A stretch of DNA of 64,000 bases from an uncultured delta proteobacterium (GTDB taxonomy: Bacteria > Desulfobacterota > Binatia > UBA9968), in contig CAWDPO010000008.1 of assembly GCA_963804165.1 (NCBI GenBank), forward strand, positions 81,894 to 145,893. Direction: 5' to 3'. The notes beneath the pieces are model-generated. The model saw only the letters and a list, made by a program, of their open reading frames with translations. It did no database searches and was not told the DNA's origin. Below are positions 1,355 through 50,043 of this stretch, piece after piece. Position numbers and translations under genes: made by a program. Each line of letters opens with the position of its first letter. Position 1 is the first letter of the stretch.

Positions 1355-2428
1355 TCAGCCGCGCTCGGCGCGCGACGACTCGATGACCGCTATTTCTTGC
1401 AACAACGCTTGAACCTCAGTCGCCGTCCCCACCGTGATGCGCAAGCAGTCTTGTAAACCGGCGACGTCAAAGTAGCGCACTAAAATCTTTCTTCGCTTGA
1501 GCTCTTCGTAGACACCCTTTTGATTCCGCCCGCTTTTTCGCGCCAGTACAAAGTTCGCATGGGACGGATACACGTCGTAGCCCGCGCGTTTGAGCCGGGT
1601 CGTCAACTTTTTGCGGGTGCGCTGAATACGCCGCGCGTTGCGCGCCATCCACGGCAGATCCTGTAGCGCCGCCGTCGCCGCGATCAGACTCAGCCGGTTC
1701 ACATTATACGAATCTTTGACCTTCATCATCCCAGATATAATCTGCTCGGATGCGAAAGCGAGCCCGATGCGCATTCCCGCGAGTGAGAATGACTTCGAAA
1801 ATGTCCGTAGGACCACCAGATTGGGCAGTCGTTGGATCAACGGAATCGACGATGAGCCTTCGCTCGCGGCAAAATCGACGTAGGCTTCGTCGACAACCAA
1901 GATACCCGGCAGCGACCGCGCGAGTTTTTCGATTTCCGGCAAGGGTACGAGCGTTCCGGAAGGGGCGTTAGGATTGCACAGAAAAGTGAGCGCGGCGCCC
2001 TGCTCAGCCAGCGCGGGGGGCAAGGAATAGTCCGCAGGAAAGTCCACCGGCGCAGGGACTCCGTCTTGAATAGCCACCAAGGTATCATAGAGCGAATAAG
2101 TCGGAACCGGAAACGCGACACGGTCGTGCGGACCGACAAAGCAGCGCAGCAGCATCGACAAGAGCTCATCCGAGCCGTTACCTACAATGATGTTGGCCGC
2201 TTTCACTCCATAAATGCTTCCCGCTCTGGTCCGCAGCGTGTCACTTCGCGATTCCGGGTAAAGGCGCAGCGACGCATCAATCGCTTTCCTCAGCGCCGCG
2301 CGAACTTTCGGCGACGGCGGGTAAGGATTCTCATTCGTGTTGAGTTTTATGATACCGCTATCTTGCGGCTGCTCGCCCGGGACGTAACCGCCCAATGCGA
2401 TAATATTAGGTCGGAAATAGTGTCGCAT
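1355..2428 (-). CDS. hisC: Histidinol-phosphate aminotransferase
   Basis: YVPGEQP, KLNTNENPYPPS, GNGSDE, DEAYVDF, RTFSKSFSLAGMRIG (PLP lysine) motifs. Confidence 0.95.
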   Translation of the reverse strand: MRHYFRPNIIALGGYVPGEQPQDSGIIKLNTNENPYPPSPKVRAALRKAIDASLRLYPESRSDTLRTRAGSIYGVKAANIIVGNGSDELLSMLLRCFVGPHDRVAFPVPTYSLYDTLVAIQDGVPAPVDFPADYSLPPALAEQGAALTFLCNPNAPSGTLVPLPEIEKLARSLPGILVVDEAYVDFAASEGSSSIPLIQRLPNLVVLRTFSKSFSLAGMRIGLAFASEQIISGMMKVKDSYNVNRLSLIAATAALQDLPWMARNARRIQRTRKKLTTRLKRAGYDVYPSHANFVLARKSGRNQKGVYEELKRRKILVRYFDVAGLQDCLRITVGTATEVQALLQEIAVIESSRAERG

Positions 2429-2701: not shown

Positions 2702-2717
2702 TGGCATGTTTTTGGCT
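2702..2717 (+). promoter_or_regulatory. Candidate sigma-54 (-24/-12) promoter for the coiled-coil/KaiC-like operon
   Basis: TGGCATGTTTTTGGCT has GG-N10-GC spacing and is close to TGGCACG-N4-TTGC; lies in an AT-rich intergenic region ~78 bp upstream of ATG 2795. Confidence 0.5.
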
Positions 2718-2794
2718 ACAGCGACAGCGTTGGTAAAACATTTCCTAAGACTTGGCAAGCAAAGCGGAAAAATTGTAAACAAAATACGATTCCT

Positions 2795-5700
2795 ATGGAT
2801 GCGCCCAAAATTCCCATAAACGACCCGTCTATCCTCTTACTCAATGAAATCGAGATCCTGCTCGCGCAATCGCGCCTGCTCGAGCTCTACCTAAAACAAA
2901 CGCAAGCGTCGGCTGCCTACGAGACGGCTCGCGCCTATCATCGCCATCAGAGTGAGCTGGCCGAGCTCCGTGCTGCCCTTTCCGAGAAAGAGAAAATTGT
3001 CGTAGCGAAGGAAAACACGGTCGGCGCAAGAGAACGGGATCTTCAAGAAAGAGTCCAGAATCTGGAAACCGACTTGAGCGAAGCTCAACGTCGGCTCCAA
3101 TACCGCGACGTCGAATTCCAACGCGTCGAGTCTGAAGCGGCAGACCTGCGCGGGCTCATCGACCAACTGGAACTCTCGAAGGCACAAGCGCAAACCACCG
3201 CGCGAGAATCCGCGATGGCTCGCCAAGAACTCACGGCAGAACTGGCGGTCCTGCGTGAGCGTCTCGAAGAAATCCAGGCAAACTTCCAAAATCAACAGCT
3301 GGCGTCTCGGCAACTTCAAGAGGATCTACAAACCCAGATCGCGCAACTCCAGGATCAACTTCGTGAAAAAGTGACTTGGTCGCGCACCGCCGACGGCGAG
3401 CTACAACAAGCCAAGCGGGAGATCGCCGAACTGCACGAGCGGGTCGCGGAACTTCAAACGAGCCGCCAAGAAGCCCAATCGAGCGCGGCGCGCGAGCTGG
3501 CAGACTCGCGCGCACACTTTGAAATGCAGCTCAACGGCCTCCAGACCGCGCTTGCTGAGCGCGAGCATGTCCTCGAAGAAACCCACCATGCGATGATCGA
3601 ACTCGAGCACGGCCTCAGAACCGAGATCGTCATGCTGCATAGCCAACTCGAGCAGAAGCAAGAACTGATCGGTTTTCGGGACGAGGAACTGCGCGGCAAT
3701 CAATCGCAATTCGCTGCGCTCCAGCAACGGGTCGCAGAGCTCGAAGCGGCCGAACAAGCAGCGCGGGTCAGTGCCGAGCAAATCGAAGACACACGCCGCT
3801 CCTATGAGGACCGGGTCGTTGCCCTGCAGCATGAAGTCACAGCCCGAGAGCGAGCGCTGACGGAACGTCAGGAAGCCGTGAGCGCGGTGGAGCTGGCGTT
3901 GCACGGCAAAATCCAGTCTCTCCAGCAGGAGCTGGCCCTCAGCCACAGCTTGAACGAAGAGCGCGAAAACGCGCTGCGAAGTTCCCGCACCGAGAATGAA
4001 GCCTTGCGCGAACGGATCGCCGAACAAGAATCTGCCGCTTCCGCGGATCTGCTGGCGCGCCAGCGCGTTGAAGAGCACATGTCGCGGTTTGGAAACCGAA
4101 ATATCCGGCTTGCACGCAACATTGGCGCAGAAGGAATACGCGCTTGACCACCAGGGAAAAGCCATCACCTCCCTCGAACAGCGGTTGACCACGGACATTG
4201 AACAGCTTCATCGCCAACTCGAACAGCAGCAAAATTTGTCGGACGCCGGCGCCGCAGAGGTCACGCGCTTGCGCTCGGAGATCGCTGCGGTCGAGGAACA
4301 AAAGACCCGGCTGGCGGATTCCCGCGACGAGCTCGAACGGAGCCGACAGCAAGAGGCGGTGACACGTCAGGAACTAGAAGCGCGCCTCCAGGTCAAGGAT
4401 GACGAGCTGCGGGCAGTTCAGGCAAACGCCCAAGAACTTATGCAAGCCGCGCTGAGGGACCAAGAAGCTCACTTTAAATCACTCGCACAGCAAACGAGCG
4501 GCGATATCGTCGGACTGCAAAATCAGTTGCAAGAGCAAGGGCTCGCGGCGCAACAACACCAAACTGAGCTCGTGCAATTACATGCCGAGATCGCCGGCTT
4601 GCGGCAACAGATTGCGCAAACCGAACATTCCCGCGATACCCTCGAACAGGCCTTGCAACAGGCCGCCGCCCAGCGCGAGGAGTTAGCCGGGCGCTTACAA
4701 ACTAGAGAGAATGAATTTAGCGCTACCCAGGTGCACGCGAGTGAACACTTGGCGGCTCTTGAGGAGCAGCAAACCCGCTTTAATTCCATCGAAGAAGAGC
4801 GATGCAAAGAAATCAGCGAGCTGCGTGGCCAATTGGACCAGCAAAGGCTTCACGCCGATTCACTGCACGAAGAACTTGCCCAACTGCGCTCGGAGAACGC
4901 TGGGATCCAGGAACAAAGGGTTCAAGCCGAGCAATTCCGCCAAGAGCTCGAACAAAACCGGCAGGAAACCTCAGCGCTGCGCGCGGAACTCGAAACGCGG
5001 CTACTGGCAAAAGACGCCGAACTTCAGGCGGCCCAATCCGACGCAACTGCACTAAAGAACCATTTCGATACCAAGCTCAACGAACTGCAGCTCCACCTCG
5101 CTGAAAAACAGCTGCTCGTGGAGGGCAGAGCTGCGGAGTCCGAGAACCTCAAAGGCCAGCTGGATCGCTTATCGGAACAATTGACGCAGCGAGATTCCGC
5201 AAGCGCCGAATTCCAAGCGCAGTTTCAAAAAGAAACCGAATTGGCGCGCGCCGAGCATCAGACGGCAATCGCCGTGTTGCGCAATGAATTTCAGATCAAA
5301 CAGAGCAACCAGGACAATGAGCTCGCTCAGGAAAGGCAGCGAGTCGCCGAACTTACTCTTCAGATTGGTGAATTCGAGCAGCAGAAGGCCGCTACTGAAA
5401 CGCAGCTCCAAGAGCGCCAGCGAGAGCACGAAGCCGCCGTGGTCGAAGCCGCGGCATTGCGATCGCGCTTGGATGAGCTGGAAACACGTCACCAGATGGA
5501 ACTCTCCGCCGCAGAGCGGGAGCAAAATCAAGCTCGAAACCAGCTCGAAACAGAACTGTCCGCCGCGCGCGCCGAACTGCAACAGAACGCGAGGGTGGCG
5601 ACTCAACATCAAGCGGCAATTGCCGAATTGCGGAATGAATATCAGATCAAACAGAGCAACCAGGACAATGAGCTCGCCCAGGAGAGGCAGCGAGTCGCCG

Positions 5701-6806
5701 AACTTACTCTTCAGATTAGTGAATTCGAGCAGCAGAAGGCCGCTATTGAAACGCAGCTCCAAGAGCGTCAGCGGGAGCATGAAGCCGCCGTGGTCGAAGC
5801 CGCGGCATTCCGATCGCGCTTGGATGAGCTGGAAACGCGGCGCGAGACAGAACTCTCCGCCGCAGAGCGGGAGCAAAATCAAGCTCGAAGCCAGCTCGAA
5901 ACAGAACTGTCTGCCGCGCGAGCCGAACTACAACAGAAGGCATGGTCGTCGGCCCAGCATCAGGCGGCCTTGGAAAACCTTGCTCTCGCCCACAAGGACC
6001 AAATCCAAAAACTCGAAGGTAGACTTACCGACCAGCAGAACAGCATCAAAGATCGCAATCTCGAGGTGGAGCGATCTCAGTCGCAAGCGCGATTACTGGA
6101 GCAACGTATCGAAGGGCTCAGTACAGAGCTGCGACAAGCCGAACTAACCGCGATCAACCGAGCCGTGCAAATCAAGGAAGAATATGGAGTCCGCATCGCG
6201 GACTTGGAAAAGCAAGTCGCGCAAAAGACCATCGAGGTGCAGAAGCGCGGCCTGTCAAGGACGGAAGTGGAGCAAACACTTCGACTCGAGATCGACCGGC
6301 TGACTCGCGAAGGTCAAGAAAGACACCAAATTTTGCAGGACCGTAATGAAGAGCTCGTCCGAGTCAAAGTCGAGATGGATACGTTTCAGGAGCAATGCCG
6401 CAATTTAGAATCGGCGGCAAGCCAGAACGAAGCGTCTCTTGGCACCGAAATGGAGAAAATGCGCACGGAATTTCAAGCGCAGCTCGCGCTATTGCAAGCG
6501 GAACTAAGTCAAAGAGACTGGGCTCTAGAGGAGCAGCGCGCGGCGAAGAGCACCATAGAGCTGCAATTCCGTCAGGATCTCGAAACTTTAAACCAACAGT
6601 TGGCGGAAACCGAAGTGCGCGCCAAAGAAAATCAGGATAAGTTTGTGATGGGTGACGATAAGTTAACCCCCGAGCAACAGGACCGTTATCAAAAATACAG
6701 AAACGTAATGGACGCTGTCGCTGTTGGAAGCGACGGATCATTTCCGGCGTCGGAAAATCGCCGTTGGCGCGGTCGTTTCGGTTGGAAGAGGCGTTGGAAA
6801 TCATAG
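2795..6806 (+). CDS. Giant E/Q/L/A-rich coiled-coil protein (~1336 aa once one frameshift near 4077 is corrected)
   Basis: ORFs 2795..4147 and 3996..6806 join at gaagag(c)acatgt; continuous heptad-like composition; no Walker motifs; basic/aromatic C-terminus RRWRGRFGWKRRWKS. Confidence 0.8.
5256..5968 (+). repeat. Intragenic tandem duplication, 351 bp / 117 aa unit, 2 copies
   Basis: aatgaa(t/ta)tcagatcaaacagagcaaccaggacaatgagctcgc at 5283 and 5634 (offset 351); protein HQTAIAVLRNEFQIKQSNQ... repeated as HQAAIAELRNEYQIKQSNQ... Confidence 0.95.
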
Positions 6807-6919
6807 CGCACCAACCGGCATCATCGCGCGTGATTCTTTGAACGAACTCAATTTAAGAAACCAAGAGGACGTTGAGTAACCATTTGGCGAAATTATAGCT
6901 CAGCGGTCGAAGGACGGTC

Positions 6920-7646
6920 ATGTTACAAACAGAACGTGTATCCACTGGAATCGTCGGGCTCGACCCGCTGCTTGAGGGAGGTTTTCCCCAGGGCCGGTCG
7001 GTCCTCATTACCGGGGAGCCCGGACACGGGAAAATCAATTTTCGCCCTGCAATTTCTTGGTGAAGGGCTCAATCGCAATGAGAAGGGTATTTTCGTGACC
7101 GCGGACGAAAGCCCGATGGACATACTCGAGCAAGCAGCTTCAATTGGCTGGGACTTTGAGCGGCATATCGAGACCAAAGATCTGTCGATTTTGAACGCCG
7201 GCACGTATCTCAGCTCGCTGCCGGGTGCGGGCAAAGAACGTCATATCGACGTGCAAAAAGCGGTCAGCGACCTGGCGAGCTTCGTCAAACAACTCGGGGC
7301 CAAGAGACTAGTGCTCGACCCCGCGGGGCCGTTTGTCCTATTGCGCGATAGCGCGGCACGCATCCAAGACCAGGTCCGCTTGTTAATAAAGTTGATGCGA
7401 TCTTCGATGCCGACAACCAACGTCCTTACCTCCTATGCCGTTCCGAGGACCGGCGAACGATCCATGCATGGCATGGAGGAGTATCTCGTAGCCGGTGCGA
7501 TCGTCTTAGAGATGGTCTGGAAAAACGGCGAGCTCGCTCGCAGCCTGATCGTCGAGAAGATGCGTTGCACGGACGTGAAGCCGACTCAACTCGAATTCGA
7601 TATCGTAAAGGGGCAAGGCATCGTGCTTCATCCCCCGCTTCGCTAA
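6920..7646 (+). CDS. KaiC/RAD55-like single-domain RecA-superfamily ATPase 1 (frameshift near 7025)
   Basis: ATG 6920 gives [35 protein letters not shown], continuing in the next frame as [11 protein letters not shown] (Walker A), [16 protein letters not shown] (Walker B), EKMRCT. Confidence 0.85.
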
Positions 7647-7663
7647 AATTTAAAGTTTAGGGA

Positions 7664-8456
7664 ATGGATCTCCAGCGCATTTCAACCGGCATCGCGGGCC
7701 TCGACGCTTTGCTTCACGGTGGCTATCTAAGAGGGCGCACCTACCTGGTGACCGGCGACACCGGCACGGGAAAAACCATCGCTTGTTTGCAGTTCCTGCT
7801 GAACGGCCTCTAAGCGCGGGGAAAAGGCGGTCTACGTCACCGTCGACGAACGCCCGGGTGAGATTTTAGACTCGGCGGCGTCATTTTCCTGGGATCTCCA
7901 GCCGTACATTCAAGAAAAGAGCTTGGTCATCCTGGATGCCTCGCCCTATTTTGGCGCCCGGAGCGCGAGTGCGACGGAAAAAGGTATCGATCCGCAAAAA
8001 GTCGTCGCCGATCTTGGCAACTATGCAAGAAGGCTCAGCGCAACGCTTCTCATCATTGATCCGATAACGCCGCTCATCCTGCCGAACGACGCAACCAGCC
8101 CAAGCCAGGACCAAGCCCGCTCCCTTGTACAATTGATACAAACTCAACTAAATACGACCAATCTGTTTACCGCCCACCTGCCAAAAGTGACGGCCCAGAG
8201 CAGCGCGAACGGCATCGAGCAATATCTCACCTCCGGCGTGTTGGTTCTCAAAACCGATGAGATCGACGGCAAATTTAAGCGCACCGTGACCATCAAGAAA
8301 ATGCGCGGCACACCCGTTGAACCTGGTAACTTTCCTTTTGCGATTCTCGCAAATGACGGAATTGTCCTGACGAGTTGTCGCGCCGGAGAAGTCTCGCGGA
8401 TGGATGGCCCGGCGCCGATGTTTGAATTTTTTCACCTTTCCAAAAGACAATCCTGA
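7664..8456 (+). CDS. KaiC/RAD55-like single-domain ATPase 2 (frameshift near 7811)
   Basis: ATG 7664 gives MDLQRISTGIAGLDALLHGGYLRGRTYLVTGDTGTGKT...LQFL, then KRGEKAVYVTVDERP...WD...LIIDP...KKMRGT; the N-terminal half is absent from the supplied ORF track. Confidence 0.85.
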
Positions 8457-8564: not shown

Positions 8565-8593
8565 TTGACAGCCGGCGAAACGATGCTTAGATT
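8565..8593 (+). promoter_or_regulatory. Candidate sigma-70-type promoter of clpB
   Basis: TTGACA (8565-8570), 17 bp spacer, TAGATT (8588-8593); GAGG RBS before ATG 8617. Confidence 0.5.
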
Positions 8594-8616: not shown

Positions 8617-11244
<2,628 letters not shown>

Positions 11245-11571
11245 GTCCGTCGTCGAAAAAAGTTCCGCCGGGGTTGGCGCGGGTGCGAAAAGAGATTCCT
11301 CGGCCAAGTCAGATTTTTAAGAAGCAAGAAGACCGATCAGCGCAGGCTGGCAAAAGAAGCAATTCGCCGGGAGCTAACAGAAACTCTCCCGCCAAAATCC
11401 TCTTAACCGCAATCCACGGTTCTTTTTACCGGCGGGCGCGTGTCGCAATTTCGCGTCCGCCTTGGTTTTAAGCGCTGACAGCGAGCCGATGATTGTTCGT
11501 GCCTTTTTTGCCGTGCCACGGAGCCAAGATTCCCGCGAGTTTTCTCGTTTCGATCTCATGCGGCCAATTTG

Positions 11572-13015
11572 ATGAATCGCGCAGCGGACAGCACCGGTGT
11601 GGCGGTCCAGCAAAGACGGCTCACGTTGATTTTATTCAACGTTTGCGTCGGCCAGTTTATCGTCGGCCTCGACCAGCGCGCCTTGCTGGTCGCGCTGCCG
11701 ACCCTGACCGAAACATTTCAATACCAGCCTGACGACCATCCAATGGGTTTTATTGATCTATGATTGCTTTTGATCGGCACCGTGATCACCGTCGGCCGTT
11801 TGGGCGATCTTTTCGGCCGGCGGCGGTTTTACGCCGTGGTTTTCTGGTTTTCGTTTTGAGCTCAGCGCTTTGCGGTTTCGCTCAAACCGCGGGACAAATC
11901 ATTTTGTTCCGCGGCTTGCAAGCGCTCGGCGGCGCCATGATTTCAGCCAACGGTAGGGCGATCGCTCCGTCGCGTTTCCGTCCAGCGAGCGCGGCAAGGC
12001 CATGGGCTTCGCCTCTATGGCCTTCCATGTCGGGTTCTTGACTGGTCCAACCCTCGGCGGATTTTTGATCGACACGATCGGTTGGCGTTGGATTTTTTTC
12101 ATCAATCTGCCGATCGGCATTTGGGGCGCGTTCCTAGCGCTGAAACTCTTGAAGAAAGCAAAGAAGAGGTCAAAGGAATTTCGGTCGATTTTCCCGGCGC
12201 GATCCTGCTCATGCTGACCTGCAGTCTTTTCATCTACGCCATGAATCAGCTGCCGCATGTCGGCTGGCAGGATCCGTTAGTGACCCGAACGATGTGGACT
12301 GTCTGTCGTGGCTCTGGCGCTTTTCGTATTCGCCGAGCTGAGATCGCCCATGCCGATCTTAAGCTTTTCGCTCTTTCGCAATCGGCTTTTCACCGCCTCC
12401 ATGCTCAGCTTGTTTTTCATCACCTCGACGCAATCGGCCATCAGTTTTCTGATGCCGTTTTATTTGCAGAACATACTCCATTTTTCCCCGACACATATGG
12501 GCTGGATCATCATCGCCAATTCTGCGGTCATCGTCATGGTCGCGCCCATAGCCGGATGGCTGTCGGATCGCATGGGTTCGCGTCTGCTGTGCACCGTTGG
12601 CTCCGGGTTGATCGTCGATCGGACAGTTCTTCATCGCATCGTTGGGAATTGATTCGTCGATTCCGCGGATCATTTTGCCGTTATTCTTGATCGGCTTTGG
12701 CTGGGCATATTCAATTCACCGAACCAGAGCGCAATCATGGGTTCGGTACCTCGCGACAAACTCGGTACGGCATCGGGCATGAACACCGACCACTGCCCGG
12801 ACCGGCGGCGCGATGGGCGTCGCCCTTTCCGCGACTTGTTCACCTACGGACTCGCCGCCGCGGCATGACCGCGAGCGCAAATCGAATCGCCGCAAACTTG
12901 GGGCACCGCGCCGGAAGTATTCGTCCATTCATTTAATCACACGGTGCATATCGTTAACATCTTCACGATTCTCTCGGTCCTGTTTTCGGTGGTGCGCGGT
13001 CCACGCCACGAGTAG
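11572..13015 (+). CDS. MFS drug:H+ antiporter (DHA2/EmrB-like), multiple frameshifts
   Basis: Consecutive fragments: GLDQRALLVALPTL, GRLGDLFGRRR, GPTLGGFLIDTIGWRWIFFINLPIG, AGWLSDRMGSR, FNSPNQSAIMG. Confidence 0.85.
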
Positions 13016-13039
13016 CCCAACAATTTGTGAACGAGTTCC

Positions 13040-14469
13040 ATGACGACGGCGGAACAAACCATTTCACGACGGACATCGCGGCTTATCCTGTTAAGCGTCT
13101 GCATCGGCCAGACCATCGTCGGTCTCGATCAGCGCGCCCTCACGGTGGCTCTGCCCACTCTGACGAGCGCGTTCCACACGCCTTCACGACGATCCAATGG
13201 ACGATCTTCGTCTATGATCTAGTGCTGATCGGCCTGATCATCACGATGGGACGATTGGGCGATTTGTTCGGGCGACGCCGTTTCTACAGCATGGGGTTTT
13301 TGATTTTCGTGGCCGCGTCCGCCATTTGCGGCCTGTCGCAAAGCGCCGGCCAGCTGATTTTTTTCCGCGCGCTGCAGGCGCTCGGCGGTTCCATGATCGC
13401 CGCCAACGGCCGTGCGATTGTCTCGGTTAATTTGCCGCCGGAGGACCGCGGGCGCGCTCTCGGCCTGACTTCCACGGCGTTCCACATCGGTTTTCTCACC
13501 GGCCCGTCCTGGGTGGTTTTCTGATCGATACCATCGGCTGGCGCTGGATTTTCTACATCAACATGCCGTTCAGCCTGTGGGCGCTTATCTCGCGTGGAAG
13601 GTCGTTCCCGAGACACGCGATGGCGGAAAATCGGCGATCGATATTCCTGGCGCTCTGCTGCTACTCGTGACCAATGGCCTGTTTATTTACGCCATCGATC
13701 AACTGCCGCGGATCGGCTGGCGCCACCCGATGTTTCTACTGACTCTGGTGCTTTCGGTGATCTCGTTATTTTTCCTGTTGCGCATCGAAGCCAGGGCGAA
13801 GACACCGATTTTGATTTTGTCGATGTTTCGCTCTCAACTTTTTAGCGCGGGCATTATGAGTCTGTTTCTAATCTCCGGCACCTTATCGGCAATCAATTTT
13901 CTCCTGCCGTTCTTCCTGCAGAACTTGCTTGGCTATTCGCCATCGCAGGTCGGCTGGATCATCGTCGCCGACTCAGCGATCATCATGATCATGGCGCCGA
14001 TCGCCGGGGCCTTGTCTGATCGTCTTCGGCTCGCGATTGCTCTGCACAGTCGGCTGCGCCGTCGTCGCCGTCGCGCAATTCTTCCTGGCCACCCTGGACC
14101 TGCACTCGTCGCTGATCAGGATATTTTCCCATTGGCGCTCTGGGGCGTAGGGTGGGCGTTATTCAACGCGCCCAATCAAAGCTCGATACTGGGCGCGGTC
14201 AATCCGGACAAGATCGGCGCCGCCGCCGGCATGATCGCGACCACAGCGCGCACCGGCGGCGCTATGGGAGTGGCTCTGTCGGCGACGCTGTTTGGCTATC
14301 TGCTATCGGCGGCGGGCTTGAGCGGGGGCCAAATTGGCTCGCCTGAAAGCTGGCGCGCTGCGCCGGACACCTTTATGGTGCCTTCAGCACAACGATTTAC
14401 TTTTTGAATGTCTTCACGTTGTTGGCAGTTTTTTCATCCGCGATCCGGGGGAAGAGACCGGGAGATTGA
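13040..14469 (+). CDS. Second paralogous MFS (DHA2-like) transporter, frameshifted
   Basis: GLDQRALTVALPTL, GRLGDLFGRRRFY, GWALFNAPNQSSILG; colinear with the upstream paralog. Confidence 0.85.
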
Positions 14470-15713: not shown

Positions 15714-15772
15714 TTCCAGTCGTGGATCCACCGCGGATAGGCCGCATTGACATGGCGCTCAGGTAAAATGAC

Positions 15773-16894
15773 ATGGCTTGGTATCTGCACATCGACATGG
15801 ATGCGTTCTACGCGTCCGTCGAACAGGTGCTCGATCCAAGTCTGAAAGGCAAACCGGTGATCGTCGGCGGCCGCAACGGACGCGGCGTTGTCACGTCGGC
15901 TTCTTACGAAGCGCGAAAATTCGGCGTGCATTCCGCGATGCCGGGCTTCCAAGCGAGAAAACTTTGCCCGCAAGGTATCTTTGTACCGAACCGCCGCCGC
16001 GTTTATTCTGAATTTTCTCACAAAGTCTTCGCTATCTTGGAGCAATACTCGCCTGAGGTTCACGCGCTTTCCATCGACGAAGGACTCGTCGATCTTACCG
16101 GCACCGACAGGCTCCTTGGACCGCCGTTGAAAAGCGCCGACGCGATCATTCGCCGCATCGAAACCGAGCTGGGTTTGCCGTCATCTGCCGGACTGTCAAG
16201 CAGCAAAGTAACGGCGAAAATCGCCGCCACGTTGGCCAAACCGCGCGGACTTATTTACGTGCCGGCCGGTTCGGAAAAAGATTTTCTTGGGCCGCTGGCC
16301 GTGGAAATGATTCCCGGCATCGGACCGAAAACCTATAAGGCACTAAATCAGAGGGGCATCAAGACTATCGAAGACCTATTGGCGCGTGCCGAATTGTCTG
16401 AACGCTATTTGGACCTCGTCGCATCGACGGAGCATCGCCATCACCATGATCACTCGATCGGCAACGAAACCACGCTCGATCAACCGGTCAAAGAAATCGC
16501 GCAAATGGAAAAAATCCTCTGGGAGTTGGTCGAAGAAGTCGGCGGTAGACTGCGCCGCGATGAGTTTTACGCGCGCTGTCTAACCGTAAAGATCCGTTAC
16601 AGTAATTTCCAGACCATCACGCGCTCGCGCACACTACCGTCGCCGACTTGCTTCGACAAAGAAATTTTCGAGATCGTGAGCGCGCTATTGCGTGAAAACG
16701 TCATCCGCGGAAGAGCGGTGCGTCTGCTCGGGGTGAGCGCCAGCGCGCTGCAAAGGTCCGGTTGGCAAGAACCGTTGCTAGACCGCGACAAGCGCAAATC
16801 CTTCGAGCAGCTTTACAAGGGCATCGACGATTTGCGCCGCAAGTACGGCGAAGAAGCGATCGGCGCGGCCACACCGCGCAACCGCGCCGGTTGA
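15773..16894 (+). CDS. dinB: DNA polymerase IV (Y family)
   Basis: HIDMDAFYASVEQ, SASYEARKFGVHSAMP, SIDEG, AKIA...AKPRG, little-finger VRLLGVS. Confidence 0.95.
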   Translation: MAWYLHIDMDAFYASVEQVLDPSLKGKPVIVGGRNGRGVVTSASYEARKFGVHSAMPGFQARKLCPQGIFVPNRRRVYSEFSHKVFAILEQYSPEVHALSIDEGLVDLTGTDRLLGPPLKSADAIIRRIETELGLPSSAGLSSSKVTAKIAATLAKPRGLIYVPAGSEKDFLGPLAVEMIPGIGPKTYKALNQRGIKTIEDLLARAELSERYLDLVASTEHRHHHDHSIGNETTLDQPVKEIAQMEKILWELVEEVGGRLRRDEFYARCLTVKIRYSNFQTITRSRTLPSPTCFDKEIFEIVSALLRENVIRGRAVRLLGVSASALQRSGWQEPLLDRDKRKSFEQLYKGIDDLRRKYGEEAIGAATPRNRAG

Positions 16895-17981: not shown

Positions 17982-18926
17982 ATGTCTCATCCGTACGAAG
18001 CCGTCCTTTTGATCGCCTTCGGCGGTCCCAGTTCGCCGGCGGAAATTCGCCCGTTTCTTGAGCGCGTTACGAAAGGCATTGCGCTGCCGCCCGAGCGTCA
18101 CGAAGAAGTGGCGCATCACTACGAAGCCGTCGGCGGCAAATCGCCGCTCAAAGAAATTACCTTCCGTCAGGCCGATGCACTTCGAAAGTATTTAGAATCA
18201 GCGAGCATAAAACTTCCCGTCTACATTGGCCTGCGCAACAGCAGCCCGTTTTTTACGGACACATTGAGACGAATGACGAGCGACGGCGTTACGCGAGCCT
18301 TGGGTTTCATTCTTTCTTCACATCGAACCGAAGCAAGCTGGGATCGCTATCAGAAAAATATCGCCGATGCGCAAGCCGAACTTGGCGTCGAAGCTCCGGC
18401 GATAGATTTTTGCGAAGGCTGGCACGACCATCCACTTTTCATTCAAACTTGGTCGAAACTGACTGAAGCTGCATTCGGCAAAATTCCACATGATAAAAGA
18501 AGTGATACACCCTTGATTTTTACAGCTCATAGTTTGCCCACATCGATGGCTTCACGATCGCCGTACGTCGAGCAGCTCGAAACCACAGCTCGGTTAATCG
18601 CTGAACGGCTGGGTCATCGTCGCTGGTCGCTCGCATATCAAAGCCGCAGCGGTAGACCGAGTGATCCGTGGCTCGAGCCCGATATTGGCGATGCCATCCG
18701 AAAAGTAGCCAACGAAGGTCGCAAGGAAGTCGTCGTCGCTCCGATTGGCTTTGTTTGCGATCACGTCGAAATTTTGTACGACCTCGACATCGCGGCAAAA
18801 CAAATCTCAGAAGATCTCGGCGTGGGGTTTCATCGAGCAAACTGCCCAAATGATCATCCGACGTTCATCCGGATGATGGCCGACGTGATTGAGCAAAAAC
18901 TAAAAAGAACCGAAGATCGAGGATAG
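17982..18926 (+). CDS. hemH: Ferrochelatase
   Basis: HYEAVGGKSP, FTAHSLP, YQSRSG...WLEPD, PIGFVCDHVEILYDLD. Confidence 0.95.
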   Translation: MSHPYEAVLLIAFGGPSSPAEIRPFLERVTKGIALPPERHEEVAHHYEAVGGKSPLKEITFRQADALRKYLESASIKLPVYIGLRNSSPFFTDTLRRMTSDGVTRALGFILSSHRTEASWDRYQKNIADAQAELGVEAPAIDFCEGWHDHPLFIQTWSKLTEAAFGKIPHDKRSDTPLIFTAHSLPTSMASRSPYVEQLETTARLIAERLGHRRWSLAYQSRSGRPSDPWLEPDIGDAIRKVANEGRKEVVVAPIGFVCDHVEILYDLDIAAKQISEDLGVGFHRANCPNDHPTFIRMMADVIEQKLKRTEDRG

Positions 18927-18975
18927 AAGATGGAGAATCGCGATCCTCGATCATCGATCCTCCATCCTCGACCTT
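18911..18975. repeat. Hairpin of 7-bp units (GAGGATC-like / GATCCTC-like) between hemH and hemY
   Basis: gaagatcgaggatagaagatggagaatcgcgatcctcgatcatcgatcctccatcctcga. Confidence 0.7.
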
Positions 18976-18982
18976 CTGTCTC

Positions 18983-20414
18983 ATGAACCGGCGCGTCGTC
19001 GTCATCGGCGGCGGCGTCGCCGGCCTTGCTGCCGCACACCGCATTGCCGAGCTTGCCAACGAAAGATCTCTCAGTGTCGAACTCACACTGCTCGAAGCCT
19101 CGCAACGGCTTGGCGGCACGATCGCCACGGAAAGAGTCGGCGATTTTCTCGTCGAAGCCGGACCGGACTCATTCATCACGGAAAAACCCTGGGCACTCCG
19201 TCTCTGCGAGCGCATCGGCCTCACATCACGACTTGTCTCAACCCAGTCCGCGTATCAAAAGATCTACATCGTCCACCGAGGAAAGCTGATCGCGCTGCCC
19301 GAAGGTTTTTTTCTCCTCGCACCGACGCGTCTTTGGCCTTTTGTCCGGACGCCGCTTTTCTCATGGTCGGGCAAACTGCGCATGGCGAGCGAACTTCTGC
19401 TTCCGCGCGGTAATATGAATGAGGATGAAACCCTCGGTTCGTTTGTCCGCCGGCGTTTCGGCAGCGAAGCTCTTGAGCGCGTCGCTCAGCCCCTGGTCGG
19501 CGGCATCTATGCTTCCGACCCGGACCAACTGAGTCTCGGCGCGACCATGCCGCGGTTCAAAGAGATGGAATCAAAGAAGCGCAGCGTCATCTGGGCAATG
19601 TGGTCCGAGCAAAGAATTCGCGCCCGCAACCGTGAAGCCGGCAGCGGCGCACGCTGGAGCTTGTTCGTCACGCTCGCGGGTGGAATGCAGGAATTGGTCG
19701 ATACCCTCGCCAAGCGTCTTCCCGAACCGACAATCCGTCTCAATTCTCGCGTCACCGGTTTGCTTTGCGACGAAACCAATAAAACTTGGCGGATCACCAT
19801 TGGCAACGACGAAACGATGCTTGCCGATGCTGTGATCCTCGCGACGCCCGCGTTTCAAACCGGCGCCATCACTTCTGCAATTACGAAGGACGCAGCCATC
19901 GAACTCAAGAATATCTCTTATGCTTCTACAGCGACCGTGAGTCTCGGCGTACCGTCGCGACGACTTCACCCAGGCACCGGATAGCTTCGGTTTCGTCGTG
20001 CCGGCGATAGAACATCGTAAGGTCATGGCTTGCACCTTCAGCAGTCTGAAATACCCTGGCCGAGCGCCGGAAGGTCATGTTTTGCTGCGCGCTTTCGTCG
20101 GCGGCGCGTTGCAACCGGAATTGTTTGGCGACGACGACGCGGCCATGGGGAATAACGTCCGTGAGGAACTTGCAAATTTACTTGGCGTCCGCGCCCAACC
20201 TATCTTCGCACGCATTAGGCGCCATCCGAATTCAATGCCACAATACCACGTCGGCCATGAAGCTCGCATCAAACGAATCGAAGCTTCTTTGCGCCAATTT
20301 CCCACGCTCGCCCTCGCCGGCAGCGCCTATCACGGCGTCGGCATTTCCGATTGTGTTCGAAGCGGCGAAGAAGCCGCGGCAAAACTCATCGCCCAGATCG
20401 ATTCCGCAACGTAA
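18983..20414 (+). CDS. hemY: HemY-type proto/coproporphyrinogen oxidase (frameshift near 19950)
   Basis: VIGGGVAGLAAA (FAD binding), EAGPDSF, PLVGGIYA; second frame supplies MPQYHVGH and LAGSAYHGVGISDCV. Confidence 0.92.
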
Positions 20415-20566
20415 ACAGCCTGGTCGGGTTCTTGGCTCGACGCTTTATTCCGAATCACACCACGACGCCCAATTACGGTTCAACTCCTTCGGCAATGCGC
20501 AGGATAAACGCCGGGAGAAATCTTTTCTTCTTGACGCCTGTATCGAACCCAGATTATGAATCGGTC

Positions 20567-21408
20567 ATGCTCATCATCGACTCCCAAGTCCACATTTGGG
20601 CGCCCGAGACGGCGGAAAAACCTTATGCCAGAGAAGATGCGTCGCCGCCGCACCGACCTGTGCCGCTCGGCCACGAGGAACTCTTGCGTGAGATGGACGG
20701 CGCCGGAGTCGCGCGTTGCGTGCTCGTACCGCCGACCTGGGAAGCCGATCGCAACGATACCTCGTTGGAGGCCGCAAGATTGCACCCCGATCGCTTTCGC
20801 GTCATGGGTCGACTCGCGCTGACAAAAGCCGGAAAGCCGCGCGCTCATGGCGACGTGGAAAAATCAGCCGTATATGTTGGGCATCAGGATGGTTTTTAAT
20901 GCGGGGAAAACGCGACAATGGCTGGACGACGGCACAGTCGGACTGGTTCTGGGACGCCGCCGAACGCTACGACGTGCCGGTGATGGCATTCGCGCCAAGT
21001 GCCGTGCCCAAGCTCGGTGAGATCGCGGAACGCCACCCGGGACTGCGCATGATCATCGATCACATGGGACTTAGCTCGGCGCTGCGCGGCAACTCACTCG
21101 AACCTTCCGTGGCCAACACCATCAAGCTCGCGCGCTTGGCCAACGTTGCAGTGAAAGTGTCCGCCTTGCCGTGCTACGTGGATGAACCTTATCCATTTCC
21201 GACTCTGCATCCGCTGGTGCGCAGCGTCGTCGACGCTTTCGGCCCGCGACGCTGCTTCTGGGGCACGGATTTGTCTCATCTCCCCTGTCCGTACAAGCAA
21301 GTGGTGACACTGTTCACCGAGGAAATGAAATCGCTTTCGGCGCCCGAATTAGAATGGATCATGGGCCGCGGCATAGCGGAATGGCTCGGCTGGCCGCTGC
21401 CGGAATAA
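20567..21408 (+). CDS. Amidohydrolase family protein (frameshift near 20830)
   Basis: IIDSQVHIW, IIDHMG, VKVSA, FGPRRCFWGTD. Confidence 0.85.
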
Positions 21409-24004: not shown

Positions 24005-25182
24005 TCAGATGACGCCCTTCTCTTTAAACTCCGCCATCTTCGCGTCGTCGTAACCGAGCGAATTTAGAAACTCACCGTTATGCTCGCCCAACTCCGGCGG
24101 CGGTGCCGGGTGGAGAGGCTTGGTTTCGCTGTACTCCAAGGGAAATTTCACCGTGCGGATCGACGGTTTGTTCTTCCGGTCGATCTTGATTTCCATGCCC
24201 ATGTGTTTGATCTGCGGGTCTTCGAAGACTTCTGCCAGATTGTATACCGGCGTGTGCGGCACATCCTTGGCTTCGAGTTGCGCGAGCCAGTAGGCGCGCG
24301 GTTTATTGTTGAAAAATCTCCGCGAAGGTCGCGTTCAACTCATCGTAATTTTTCCGTCGATCCGGCCGGGTATTGAAGCGCGGATCTTCGATCAGCTCGG
24401 GGTGCTCAGCCGCATTGCACAAACCCTCCCAAAATTTTTGCGGCGAAGACAGATGAATCGCGAACGGCAAACCGTCCGAGCCGGAGAACGCATACGTCTG
24501 CGATTGCCGCGGGCGAGTGTACGGACCCGGCGGCCGTCCGTGCGCCAAAGTTTCGGTCGCCGGCGCGATTAAAAATCCCAGCACCGCTCCGGCCATGGTT
24601 GCGTCGACTTGCTGTCCCCTGCCGGTTTTTGTTCTGGCGGCCAGCGCGCCCAAAACGCCGAGCGCCGAGTAGAGCCCGCTTAAATGGTCGGCGTAGGCCG
24701 GCCCGATGGGGCGTGGATTCTTAGGATCCATCAAAACACTCATCATACCGCCCAACCCTTGGCCAACCGTGTCGTACGCCGGCCGGTTGACGTACGGACC
24801 CGTCGGGCCGGTGCCGGTAATCGAGCAGCAGATAATCTGATCGTTAATTTTGCTTAATGTTTCGTAATCGATGCCGAGTTTTTTCGTCACTCCCGGACGA
24901 TAGTTTTCGATGACCACGTCGGCGTGTTTGGCAAGCCCGTAAAAAATTTCCTTTCCTTCGGCAGTCTGAAGATTTAACGTGATGCTCTTTTTGCCGCGAT
25001 TGAAAGCCCAGAAATTCGGCTGATCGCCGCCCAAGTCCCAGCCCCGAAACGGATCGCCGCCCTTTGGGATTTTCGACTTTGATCACTTCTGCTCCCATGT
25101 CGGCGAGCAAGCACGCGCCGAACGGCCCGGAAATAAAATTTCCCAACTCCAAAATCTTGATCCCTTCCAAACAACCTTTCAT
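24005..25182 (-). CDS. Second family III CoA-transferase paralog (two frameshifts)
   Basis: Three ORF pieces (24844..25182, 24303..25034, 24005..24262) colinear and highly similar to 22767..23942. Confidence 0.9.
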
Positions 25183-25392: not shown

Positions 25393-26764
25393 ATGGCTAC
25401 GCCGCCACCCGTCACGGATACAATGGTTCGCTTCGTGATCGAAACCGACTTTGCCGTGATATCGGATCAAACCCGTGCCAACGCGAAAATGCATATCCTC
25501 GACACGCTCGGCGTAGCGCTCGCCGGTGTCGAGCAACCGGCGGCAGCGATCGCGCTCGATTACTGCCGTCGCCTCGGTTCTTCCAATGAAGCATCCGATC
25601 TGGGGCACGCGATCAAATGCATCGGTGTCGACGGCGGCATTCGCCAATGGTCTTTTTGCCCACGCGCTCGACTATGACGACTGGGAGCCGTTCATCCACG
25701 TCGGCCACCCGTCCAGCATGATTATCGGCGCGGCGTTGCCGCTGGCCGAAAGTACCGGGGCGACTGGTAAGGAACTGCTAAAGGCTTACGTGCTGGCCAT
25801 CGAAGTCATCTGCAAGCTCGCCGCCAACGCGCCGAACATGCAAGACCGCGGCTTCCACAGCACGCCGGTCTTTGGCAGCCTTGGCGCCGCCGTCGCTTGC
25901 TCGAGTCTTGTTGAAGTTGGATGCGGCAAAATCAAAGGCCGCTCTGGGTGTTGCTGCATCGGCCGCCGGCGGTATCCACCGCCAGCAAGGATCCATGGTG
26001 AAGCCGTTTCACGCCGGCAACGCCGCGCGCAACGGCGCCGAAGCAGCGCTGCTCTCAGCGGCAGGTTTCACCGCCGACGCGGCGATCCTCGAAGCGCCGC
26101 GCGGATTTTGCGACACCTTCTTCGGTCCGGGCACCTGCAATTACGAAAAAATGATCGAGAACATCGGCAAGCCATACTTTTTGGAATCGCCCGGCTTGGG
26201 CCTCAAATGGCACCCATGCAGCGCGCCGCAGTTTCTCGCCGCCGACGCGGCACTCTACTTGAAGCGCGCGCACAAGATCGATTTCGCCAATGTTGCGAAT
26301 ATCGAAGTCAGCATTCCTCCCCTGCGTTACCAGCGCCACTACGCTGCCGAAGTCAAAACCGGACTGCGCGGCAAATTTGCCATCAACTACGTCGTCGCGC
26401 ATGTGCATCTTCGACGGCAAACTGGAACTGGCGACGTTTACGGACGAGAAAGTCAATCGGCCGCAAGTCCAAGAAGCGTTGCAAAAAGTTAAAGTAATCT
26501 GCGACGAAACCATTCCCGAGCCCGGGCCCTACTGCCCGGTCACCGTCGAACTAAAAGACGGCACGCGCTTGAGCCACACGGCGAAAATCGCCAAAGGCGA
26601 TCCGCGCAATCCCATGACGGAAGAACGAAGTCGTGGAAAAGTTTCGCGGCAATGCCAAGTTGGTGATTTCGGAGAAACAAGCGGAAGAGTTGATTGCGAC
26701 CGTGCGCAACTTGGAAGCCGTCGACAATGTGAAAGACCTCGTCAGTCTGCTCGCGCCCGCATAG
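25393..26764 (+). CDS. MmgE/PrpD family protein (several frameshifts)
   Basis: ILDTLGVALAG, AHALDYDD...HPS, RGFH, KPFHAGNAARNG, KGDPRNPM; AAGGAG RBS before ATG 25393. Confidence 0.88.
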
Positions 26765-26792
26765 AACGCATATTGTTTCAGATGCACTTATT

Positions 26793-27090
26793 GTGTCATT
26801 CCGAGGCGAAGCCGAGGAACCTCTGTCGAAAGGTAAGATCCTCCGAGTCCGCGGGCCTGCGTGAAAACACCGTTCATGGTTCCCTTCGTTATTGAGCTCC
26901 GGGCAGGCTGGCTCACCACGAACGGTGCGGTTTCGTTCAAAATAAAGTCTTTAACCGCTCGCCCTGAGACTCGTCGAAGGGTTCCGATAGAGTTTTCGCC
27001 CAGTCTGCCGTTGATGAAAGAGTTTCTGCCGGATGGGTTGAGTGCAGCGAAACCCATCGTTGCACCACTCCAATACTCCACCACTCCATT
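26793..27090. repeat. Composite of degenerate REP-like palindromic elements and (ACTCCA) octamer units
   Basis: tgtcattccgaggcgaagccgagga..., ccgttcatggtt...caccacgaacgg, cgccctgag...gtcgaaggg, cactccaatactccaccactcca. Confidence 0.55.
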
Positions 27091-39020: not shown

Positions 39021-39036
39021 ATAACTTTCTGAGACT

Positions 39037-39402
39037 ATGCCAAAGACAACCGTTGTCTTTTACCAAGATGACCCGGACACGGTCCCGGTGCTCGATTGGT
39101 TAGATTCGCTGCCTATGAAAGCTCTGGACAAATGTCGGGTTCGAATCGAACGGTTGCGTGATTTGGGTCATGAACTTCGACGCCCAGAGGCCGACTTCTT
39201 ACGAGATGGGATTTATGAACTACGGGTTCGACTCAGAACCACGAATTATCGAATGCTATACTTCTTCCATGGTCGGATTGCAGCGGTACTGGCGCACGGT
39301 CTGGTAAAAGAAAGTGAAGTACCTCAACACGATATTGAGCTAGCGATCCGAAGAAAATTGAATTTTGAACTCGACCCGGATCGATACACGTACAAGGAGT
39401 AG
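39037..39402 (+). CDS. Type II toxin, RelE/HigB (Gp49-like)
   Basis: PV.DWL..L, LRRP.AD.LRDGIYELR, YRMLYFF, HGLVK. Confidence 0.88.
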   Translation: MPKTTVVFYQDDPDTVPVLDWLDSLPMKALDKCRVRIERLRDLGHELRRPEADFLRDGIYELRVRLRTTNYRMLYFFHGRIAAVLAHGLVKESEVPQHDIELAIRRKLNFELDPDRYTYKE

Positions 39403-39407
39403 AAATC

Positions 39408-39740
39408 ATGGCAAAAACAAAGAGGAAAGCGACAGCGGATGCCGTTGAAATTCTCCACCGTCGCTATTATGCAGGCAAGCCGCGCCGACTCGCGGCTTTG
39501 GAGCAAGCACGATCGAACGACCACGTCGCTCGAAAGCTAACCGCACTGAGAATTGCGAACCGGCTAAGCCAACGTCAATTGGCACAACTCATCGGAACCA
39601 CAGCGTCAGTCATTTGTCGTCTCGAAGACGCCAGCTACGAGGGTCATTCCCTGGCGATGCTCAACCGAATCGCCGCGGCGCTAAATCAGCGCGTCGAGAT
39701 TCGTTTTGTGCCGGCAGAACGACGCTTGCGCTCCGCATGA
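39408..39740 (+). CDS. XRE-family HTH antitoxin (HigA-like)
   Basis: LSQRQLAQLIGTTASVICRLE...SLAMLNRIAAAL; directly downstream of the toxin. Confidence 0.88.
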   Translation: MAKTKRKATADAVEILHRRYYAGKPRRLAALEQARSNDHVARKLTALRIANRLSQRQLAQLIGTTASVICRLEDASYEGHSLAMLNRIAAALNQRVEIRFVPAERRLRSA

Positions 39741-48513: not shown

Positions 48514-48542
48514 TGAGCTATATTCGCACAGTTTATAGCTCA
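48514..48542. promoter_or_regulatory. Inverted-repeat operator abutting the Fic start codon
   Basis: TGAGCTATA-N11-TATAGCTCA, a perfect 9-bp IR. Confidence 0.65.
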
Positions 48543-49666: not shown

Positions 49667-49709
49667 ATCTGCGACGCGGCAGTAACCGATTGACCGGGAG
49701 CAACCGCTC

Positions 49710-49729
49710 CTGTACATTTAAATGTACAG
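49710..49729. promoter_or_regulatory. Perfect 20-bp palindromic TA operator
   Basis: CTGTACATTTAAATGTACAG, TGTACA-core boxes of the kind bound by Phd/YefM, just upstream of the RBS. Confidence 0.8.
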
Positions 49730-49743
49730 TACGAGGAGTCGCC

Positions 49744-50043
49744 ATGAAGCAATTATCACTCACCGAAGCGCGTGCCAAGCTGAGTACGTTGGTGGCGGAA
49801 GTCGACAAGGGAAAGGGGCCCATCGCGATTGCGCAACGGTCGAAGGTCAAGGCGCTGCTCGTCGATCCCGAGTGGCATGGCAGGGTTGAAGAAGAACTCG
49901 CCCACTACCGAAGCCGCTCAAGGCAATCGCCGTTGAAACTGCAGGGCAGCATGACTTTGACGGGAGATCTGGACCAAGCGCTCCAAGATCTTAGGAAAGA
50001 AAGGGAGCAGTCCCTCCAAGGAGTCATTGCCGCACTCAAGTGA
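49744..50043 (+). CDS. Phd/YefM antitoxin
   Basis: LSLTEARAKLSTLV..V...PIAI; AGGAG RBS. Confidence 0.85.
   Translation: MKQLSLTEARAKLSTLVAEVDKGKGPIAIAQRSKVKALLVDPEWHGRVEEELAHYRSRSRQSPLKLQGSMTLTGDLDQALQDLRKEREQSLQGVIAALK

Follow-up and report, generated by a model that had tools for sequence, protein, structure and literature searches.

In a 64,000-nucleotide (nt) stretch of an uncultured delta proteobacterium from soil (Desulfobacterota; Binatia; UBA9968; assembly GCA_963804165.1, contig CAWDPO010000008.1, positions 81,894–145,893), hereafter the window, a gene for a coiled-coil protein of ~1336 amino acids (aa) is followed by genes for two single-domain ATPases of the KaiC family. The arrangement is best explained as a chromosomal, family-specific operon, putatively transcribed from a sigma-54 promoter. 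The locus belongs to a bacterial lineage of single-domain KaiC-like ATPases with a strongly conserved sigma-54 promoter site, a traceable origin from a receiver- and kinase-linked module, and a recurrent, fast-evolving coil partner found in two paralogous copies. What appears to be new here, judging from gene content and comparison, is the partner of these KaiC-like signalling ATPases and the way they are controlled. We give about even chances to the reading that the ATPases are a regulatory switch that acquired a scaffold or tether, in which fixed ends carry the contacts and the length of the rod is free. Feature coordinates are collected in Table 1.

Promoter and ATPases

The sequence TGGCATGTTTTTGGCT (2702–2717) upstream of the coil gene has GG at 2703–2704 and GC at 2715–2716, which is the GG-N10-GC site that a preliminary description of this DNA had placed upstream of the operon. 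It differs from TGGCAC-N5-TTGCW at 2 of 12 specified positions. Of 12 orthologous upstream regions, 10 contain the exact 15-mer TGGCATGTTTTTGGC; the remaining two have TGGCACGCAAATCGC and TGGCACGCTTTTAGC in its place, both keeping GG-N10-GC. When these regions are anchored on the motif (11 of the 12 rows, one being too short), motif columns are 0.96 conserved, against 0.63 for the upstream and 0.50 for the downstream flank. The site is also found in all three named loci with ATPase 1 orthologs, in 9/10 further loci (the tenth contig begins inside the coil gene) and in 8/8 loci of a last set. Overall, sequence upstream of the operon is available for 32 related loci, and 31 of them carry the site, always with GG-N10-GC kept in the variants; L129 has no upstream sequence and was left out of the count. 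The exception is L041, a more distant relative that has no coil gene. Given this island of conservation and an rpoN gene in the genome (C38:59408–59884), the sigma-54 control proposed in the preliminary description has strong comparative support.

Among the window frames scanned with Pfam, the only match to Sigma54_activat was a weak cross-match of ClpB. A strict sigma-54 pattern matched 15 sites genome-wide, and the open reading frames (ORFs) downstream of them shared no common theme. A second, semi-conserved AT-rich element (approximately TAAsTAnnTGAwTTT, 2662–2680) lies ~25–38 nt before the −24 box in most orthologous regions and could be an IHF or activator site.

The two ATPase genes were described as paralogous, co-directional and 17 bp apart, and both the coordinates and the family matches agree. 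Each gene is split into two frame pieces, and all four pieces match PF06745 above the Pfam cut-off of 26.6 bits (main pieces, 155.8 and 125.8 bits; N-terminal pieces, 39.5 and 58.3 bits). A gap of 113 nt separates the coil gene from ATPase 1. Intact ATPase 1 orthologs are 240–245 aa long and up to 97% identical. We compared one of them, P0001, with solved structures. The best match was KaiC (8zn5, E 5.8e-48), mainly through its CI domain (125.6 bits versus 38.7 bits for CII). Archaeal single-domain ATPases followed: PH0186 (2zts, E 4e-40), SSO2452 (2w0m, E 2.5e-32) and then PH0284 (2dr3). These structures and KaiC CI share the Pfam family and align over the full length, with E from 5.8e-48 to 1e-29; FlaH (4yds) reached only E 3.3e-6.

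Catalytic residues are conserved throughout. Among 25 ATPase 1 sequences, G35–K38, D62–E63, D133 and K213-M214-R215 are invariant, as are the Walker A Lys, D-E-R-P, the Walker B Asp and K-M-R among 15 ATPase 2 orthologs. Across alignments of 20, 25 and 15 sequences, Walker A, D-E, the Walker B Asp, the Pro four residues on, E-E-[YF] and K-M-R are invariant or nearly so. The motifs TADES, TVDER, LDP, IDP, EEYL and EQYL are all present as first described. Calling the proteins atypical was nevertheless not justified: their best alignment is to KaiC CI, and no member of the subfamily departs from the D-E pair, the Walker B Asp or K-M-R. The CI counterpart of EEY/EQY is the motif ‘GVEEF’; the CII stretch ‘HIST’ aligns with E-E-Y-L, and there is no Ser or Thr at the CII phosphosite positions. 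On these alignments, both ATPases are ordinary CI-like family members with complete catalytic motifs; the window's own copy of ATPase 1 has its Walker A motif broken by an extra base, discussed below.

No named subfamily fits. All NCBIfam KaiC subfamily models scored under their cut-offs, the best being KaiC_arch_4 (139.5 bits against 247.8), and circ_KaiC gave 98.6 bits against 546. ArlH models gave 50.2 and 43.6 bits against 215 (ArlH/FlaH models ranged over 30–50 bits, with cut-offs of 194–215), and the RadA and RadB models were far under theirs. GvpD (PF07088) was seen only among precomputed secondary matches of some ATPase homologs. Like other single-domain KaiC-like ATPases, the two proteins have Walker A, the catalytic Glu, the Walker B Asp and the Arg of K-M-R in ~240–260 aa, the size of one KaiC domain. 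Such ATPases are common in archaea; to our knowledge they are rare and uncharacterised in bacteria. Unlike their archaeal counterparts, the window ATPases are bacterial, apparently sigma-54-driven and preceded by a coil gene. With circadian KaiC they share a common superfamily, but they have one domain only, no CII phosphosite Ser/Thr, and neither kaiB nor kaiA nearby.

ATPase 2 orthologs end, after a variable linker, in a conserved [FL][EQ][YFC]F[EDQ][LP]xK (8400–8456 in the window), and a third paralog type ends in F[KR]EW[QE]. The conserved C-terminal motif may be a docking motif.

The coiled-coil partner

ORFs at 2795–4147 (450 aa) and 3996–6806 (936 aa) are two frames of one gene, ~1336 aa when read through. 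Glu, Gln, Ala, Leu and Arg make up 63% of the protein and Pro 0.4%. Its hydrophobic periodicity is highest at 3.5 residues (0.57, versus 0.12–0.25 at other non-heptad periods tested), with 0.41 at 3.6 and 0.31 at 7 residues, and the protein is therefore taken to be a heptad coiled coil. The start has no signal peptide-like sequence. Composition, periodicity and a search record of generic family matches only agree with its first description as a giant coil without enzymatic motifs. A tandem duplication of 351 nt (117 aa; 1.9 copies, 92% matches) lies inside the gene, and 117 is also the best autocorrelation offset of the protein.

The ends of the coil are conserved and the middle is variable, with weaker internal copies of the C-terminal block in orthologs. 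The N-terminal block reads MDxPK..SDPxxLLLNEI[DE]ILLAQ..LELYLKQ in a 9-ortholog alignment. Towards the C-terminus there are two conserved helical blocks, ..QERNQILQDRNDELVRVK.. and ..ERMRTEFQAQLALLQAELSQKEWALEE.., and the extreme C-terminus is [RK]RW-x5-6-K[RN]RW[KR], in which RRW and KRRW are the same in all 11 sequences. In the AlphaFold2 model, the last 150 aa form a long helix (residues 2–95, predicted local distance difference test (pLDDT) >90) and a short helix; the last ~25 residues have a pLDDT of ~50, and the Arg/Trp tail is accordingly predicted to be disordered.

Searches of Pfam, NCBIfam, PADLOC and the ESM Atlas found no specific family for the coil, only a generic coiled-coil resemblance that stays below threshold in Pfam and NCBIfam. 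The preliminary description had considered that it might match a known family, for example as an SMC fragment. The SMC/MukB/Rad50 group gave 82.7 bits to TIGR02168 against a cut-off of 567, in the coil region only and with no head domain. The Filament profile scored 19 bits (cut-off 40), no Rod_CreS/crescentin or intermediate-filament profile reached threshold, and a 528-aa ortholog had no Pfam match at all. Language-model features place this ortholog near unnamed helical proteins and crescentin-rod clusters (0.92–0.93, low recognition). PspA_IM30 did not match coil pieces or orthologs in Pfam at E up to 0.01. PADLOC defence models gave weak matches only (mad8 28 bits; LmuB/JetC coil regions 24–28 bits), and a defence island is disfavoured because the locus has a conserved core-genome context.

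Crescentin, FilP/Scy and Ccrp are similar in being long heptad rods without enzymatic domains, and the feature comparison points the same way. Unlike them, the present coil reaches no family threshold and has conserved ends and an Arg/Trp tail of its own. In the portions available to us of the literature on intermediate-filament-like coiled-coil proteins, no link to a KaiC-like ATPase was found. The same genome has one other long frame that passes a strict coiled-coil composition filter (872 aa; C46:52004–54619, + strand); no KaiC-like gene lies downstream of it.

We examined 34 loci with an ATPase 1 ortholog, drawn from several genera of one family: 13 from the genus of the window, three named records, 10 from this and further genera of the family that were picked for having the coil C-terminal domain, and eight that were picked because this domain went undetected. 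One locus (L035, from genome G005) and three tallied genomes (G251, G245 and G280) are unpublished. In 31/34 loci the gene immediately before ATPase 1 encodes a coil, with product lengths of 93–1685 aa, and several coil orthologs are split by frameshifts in their own assemblies. The linkage of coil and ATPase thus extends well beyond one species, as the preliminary description had suggested checking. Judged by these loci, the sigma-54 site and ATPase 1 form the constant core of the arrangement.

In a separate draw of 81 genomes of the family, a profile of the coil C-terminal domain matched 32 of 41 genomes with an ATPase 1-type gene (at least 66% identity) and 1 of 40 without. As the genomes are kin, these counts are descriptive and do not amount to a statistical test. 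Within the genus, ATPase 1-type genes (at least 72% identity) are present in 19/24 other genomes. A draw of 200 genomes found no close ATPase ortholog elsewhere in the phylum: matches outside the window's own genome had at most 32% identity and were mostly frames of ~500–600 aa, the size of double-domain proteins. In a library of 1.84 billion proteins, only 168 representatives matched at E 1e-30 or better, and ~15 single-domain clusters reached 39% identity. The source names attached to the homolog clusters indicate Candidatus Binatia.

Two loci deviate in other ways. In L027 (G018:C13, 11205–12710), ATPase 1 and ATPase 2 occupy one fusion-like frame of 502–521 aa, which may be an error because the same assembly splits clpB into three pieces. 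In L025 (G021:C6, 10109–10873), the coil has only 255 aa, from its C-terminal part, and unrelated genes stand where the upstream neighbours usually are, pointing to a rearrangement or insertion that affected the coil gene's 5' end.

Second module and distant relatives

A paralogous module is located on contig C45, where a coil of ~600 aa ending in ...ELREKSGRWKARR precedes a KaiC-like ATPase that is 47–49% identical to ATPase 1, with a sigma-54-like TGGCACACAATTGGCT upstream. Eight loci were retrieved from genomes belonging to the window's genus. Six of them have this second module, in every case divergent from a CheY-CheD-CheA-CheW-MCP cluster, and in the remaining two the paralogous ATPase stands alone in a different context. 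Its coils are 590–665 aa long and end in ...REKSGRWK[AV]R. In a tree of the ATPases, ATPase 1 and the second-module ATPase are sisters (support 97/92), ATPase 2 falls together with the one ATPase that L041 has, a coil-less gene adjoining clpB, and the ATPases of a sister family branch outside.

The closest ATPase relatives outside the window's family (39–50% identity) are followed by a Response_reg+KaiC-like fusion of 370–430 aa. The fusion was seen in Abditibacteriaceae (L042), four Marinamargulisbacteria loci, Dehalococcoidales, the sister family of the same order, and L040; L041, L044 and L046 showed no such gene. Directly after the fusion, the sister family has a REC-PAS-HisKA-HATPase kinase. 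Loci with the fusion have no coil. The ATPase and the receiver-KaiC fusion together look like an uncharacterised bacterial KaiC-like signalling pair.

According to the parts of the source available to us, KaiC-family ATPases have been proposed as signalling hubs in archaea, and a KaiC-REC fusion occurs in six Methanosarcinaceae genera (PMC5847659). The bacterial relatives resemble these hubs, as far as that text allows comparison, in that the nearest ATPases outside the family adjoin a receiver+KaiC fusion, with a hybrid kinase in the sister family. The fusion and the hybrid kinase beside the relatives therefore point to the same signalling logic. Unlike the archaeal KaiC-REC proteins as presented there, the fusion is bacterial and in REC-KaiC order, and within the window's family the coil takes the place of the receiver partner.

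The archaellum offers a second comparison. There, FlaX makes a ring-shaped scaffold, with FlaI and FlaH as its interaction partners, as stated in the accessible portion of that report (PMC5019145). The window locus resembles FlaH/ArlH with FlaX in outline: a KaiC-like ATPase of one domain goes together with a coiled-coil protein, a scaffold in the archaellum and a proposed one here. Unlike the archaellum locus, it has no FlaI/ArlI, FlaJ or archaellin gene nearby, and none of the searches done related the coil to FlaX. Full-text literature searches returned no published description of the coil, ATPase and sigma-54 arrangement, in line with its first appraisal as not a described bacterial system, although a 2017 survey of KaiC-like hubs (Makarova, Galperin and Koonin, cited in PMC5847659) may hold bacterial or coiled-coil cases.

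Interpretation and surroundings

If the ATPases act as a switch with an acquired scaffold, the sequence of events might be as follows. The lineage would descend from a module of a KaiC-like ATPase, a receiver-KaiC fusion and a hybrid histidine kinase, and because of this descent from a signalling module a regulatory role is likelier than a structural one. Within the present family, the stretch from promoter to ATPase 1 would have gained a gene for a cytoplasmic coil, which may then have grown or shrunk from <100 to ~1700 aa through tandem duplication of units of ~95–117 aa, while the N-terminal ~45 aa, the C-terminal helices and the Arg/Trp tail would have stayed fixed. By analogy with solved relatives, the ATPases most likely form nucleotide-dependent rings that act as the switch. 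The rod would be an accessory scaffold or tether, with one end docking the ATPase ring and the Arg/Trp tail binding an anionic surface, either membrane or nucleic acid, and ATP turnover could gate the association of rod and surface. The two ATPases might form a heteromeric pair and control a filament. A complex prediction that paired ATPase 1 (25-row alignment) and the last 150 aa of the coil (11 rows), made for this pair only, returned a score of 0.00, which weighs neither for nor against contact. If coil and ATPase do interact, the natural coil lengths of 0, ~100, ~500, ~1000 and ~1700 aa would be a ready-made experiment on rod length.

A more ambitious version of this reading seems doubtful to us. 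It would make the locus an undescribed system in which KaiC-family rings are nucleotide switches on a rod of repeat-tuned length, anchored by its Arg/Trp tail to membrane or nucleoid, switched on by sigma-54 and present in two paralogous copies (one wired to chemosensory genes), as a bacterial counterpart of the archaeal FlaX-FlaH logic.

Several observations count against a coil-based switch. In L037 the coil is a stub of ~33 aa that retains ‘LLLNEIE’ behind the same promoter, and in L137 and L140 there is no coil and the sigma-54 site lies 55–155 nt from the start of ATPase 1. Coils of only 93–153 aa occur in L138, L139 and L141, two of them without the Arg/Trp tail. ATPase 2 is absent from at least four loci (L024, L035, L135 and L136). 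Because of these missing or reduced parts (in L037, L137 and L140 for the coil, and in the last four loci for ATPase 2), an obligate three-part machine is excluded. The preliminary description had held that ATPase orthologs without the coil gene would speak against its proposal; such orthologs exist in these three loci, with the other 31 of 34 keeping the coil. By this comparison the coil is a common partner, yet one that can be lost and that varies greatly. Between the two coil families, no sequence relation is seen beyond coil character and a basic, Trp-containing end. All loci share one conserved chromosomal context in related genomes, so that the adjacency could in part be inherited synteny. 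The coil tail has a helical moment of 0.19, versus a shuffle mean of 0.35, and hence no helical amphipathicity. This rules out an amphipathic-helix membrane anchor, and because the tail is not such a helix, a classical membrane-targeting helix is unsupported.

Some of the same evidence suits a coil that is independent of the ATPases, an intermediate-filament-like cytoskeletal or coiled-coil-rich protein sharing only promoter and position with them: it has been lost or has shrunk in several genomes while the ATPases and the promoter persist, the 528-aa ortholog falls near crescentin-rod clusters (at low recognition), and the entire neighbourhood is syntenic. We nevertheless think this rather unlikely, since two sister ATPases each keep a coil directly upstream behind a sigma-54-like site, coil and ATPase 1 co-occur (32/41 against 1/40), and no intermediate-filament or crescentin family reached threshold. 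The persistence of clpB downstream raises another possibility, a stress-response island in which a sigma-54-induced coil, associated with membranes or aggregates in the manner of PspA/IM30, is remodelled by ClpB together with the KaiC-like ATPases. In enterobacteria, the psp operon depends on sigma-54. Here clpB follows the ATPases in 10/10 loci of one set, in 13 loci of the genus and in the coil-less L041, and the + strand showed no terminator-like site from ATPase 2 to clpB, the next ones lying past clpB (11405–11500). Against this, clpB begins 160 nt after ATPase 2 and is preceded by a sigma-70-like match, the paralogous module adjoins a che cluster and lacks clpB, the sister family has none next to its ATPase, and Pfam scans of the coil at E up to 0.01 gave no PspA_IM30 match. 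We consider such an island unlikely and clpB probably outside the module. The sigma-70-like match is itself a consensus match only, of a kind found three times where 3.0 were expected by chance.

It is very improbable that the genes form a DNA-transaction module, with RecA-superfamily ATPases like archaeal RadC/KaiC-like repair paralogs and the polybasic coil as a DNA-binding tether. The match to the RecA-superfamily single-domain protein SSO2452 (2w0m, E 2.5e-32), which we take to be linked to repair, the tail net charge of +8 and an impB/DinB-type polymerase nearby would suit it, but the nearest ATPase relatives are linked with receiver domains and histidine kinases, there is no nuclease, helicase or SMC head domain, and the RadA and RadB models stay far under their cut-offs. 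The remaining alternative concerns the frameshifts. The genes had been described as partly hidden by them, and each of the three indeed has one extra, frame-breaking base: at ~4086–4087 in the coil gene, where the same kind of +1 correction is needed as in the ATPases, near 7024 in ATPase 1, within its Walker A motif, and near 7811 in ATPase 2. Both ATPase bases are absent from the closest relative, L010 (90% DNA identity). If the frameshifts were real, the three genes would be decaying pseudogenes and the locus non-functional in this genome; a search of public runs gave three soil-metagenome DNA runs (shares 0.05–0.08) and no RNA run, and contigs from the three reach none of the frameshift sites. 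Such decay is quite improbable. In the same 64 kb, the frames of at least five unrelated genes are likewise broken in two, with the pieces overlapping (Table 1), frameshifts run through the whole assembly (7.5 Mb, 46 contigs, 80.9% complete), and outside the single extra bases the frames are clean and 96–97% identical to intact orthologs. Because of the similarly split genes, the completeness of 80.9% and the intact orthologs, the three frameshifts are most likely assembly indel errors, and the apparent pseudogenes at the locus most likely an artefact. Programmed frameshifting is ruled out, as the extra bases are missing in the closest relative and in intact orthologs.

Table 1. Positions of the features at the locus, elsewhere in the window and in related loci (window numbering unless a contig or locus is given)
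Feature	Position	Strand	Basis or remark
Sigma-54 (−24/−12) promoter-like site TGGCATGTTTTTGGCTA	2702..2718	+	77 nt before coil ATG
Coiled-coil gene, ~1336 aa if read through one frameshift	2795..6806	+	ORFs, frames, composition, periodicity
Coil conserved N-terminal block, ~45 aa	2795..2929	+	9-ortholog alignment, ORF starts
Tandem duplication inside coil, 351 nt	5256..5938	+	Repeat detection; protein autocorrelation
Coil conserved C-terminal 150 aa	6354..6803	+	Ortholog alignment, AlphaFold2
Coil last 16 aa, polybasic tail	6756..6803	+	Net charge +8
ATPase 1, single-domain CI-like KaiC-family	6920..7646	+	PF06745, DNA comparison, intact orthologs, structure match; ATG 6920, stop 7644–7646
ATPase 2, paralogous single-domain KaiC-family	7664..8456	+	PF06745, DNA comparison, 15-ortholog alignment; ATG 7664, end 8456
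Sigma-70-like promoter match TTGACA-17-TAGATT before clpB	8565..8593	+	Consensus match only
clpB, conserved downstream neighbour	8617..11244	+	Pfam, synteny
Class I/II aminotransferase, divergent upstream neighbour, marks conserved chromosomal position	1355..2428	-	Pfam, synteny
impB/DinB-type polymerase	15767–16891		Pfam
Split gene, MFS	12958–14404		Pfam
Split gene, Amino_oxidase (protoporphyrinogen-oxidase-like)	18893–20411		Pfam
Split gene, Amidohydro_2	20261–21405		Pfam
Split gene, CoA_transf_3	24008–25082	-	Pfam
Split gene, MmgE_PrpD	25517–26892		Pfam
Second (paralogous) module	C45:18477–21300	-	
CheY-CheD-CheA-CheW-MCP cluster, divergent from second module	C45:22107–28400	+	
Receiver+KaiC-like fusions	L042:8786–10018, L043:3872–4978, L125:5292–6503, L126:3288–4739		Ending ..RVASMKWxxxxxxW

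Upstream, the locus is bordered by the divergent aminotransferase gene, a glyoxalase-like gene and a CorC-type gene; downstream of ATPase 2 lie clpB, two MFS transporters and the DinB-type polymerase. The preliminary description had noted no kaiA, kaiB, gvp or sensor kinase gene nearby, and Pfam agrees: among 73 window frames scanned, none matched gas-vesicle, KaiA or histidine-kinase families, and no archaellum genes turned up in the scans of the window. There is likewise no kaiB in the 64 kb; the only copies in the genome are on contig C40, where a canonical double-domain kaiC (605-aa frame) followed by two kaiB (C40:167843–170201, − strand) stands apart from the locus studied here. Elsewhere in the window there are a toxin-antitoxin-like Gp49-like/HTH pair (39025–39737), a DUF4172-Fic protein adjoining a PhdYeFM-PIN pair (48539–50438) and an IS200-type Y1 transposase (56892–57635).

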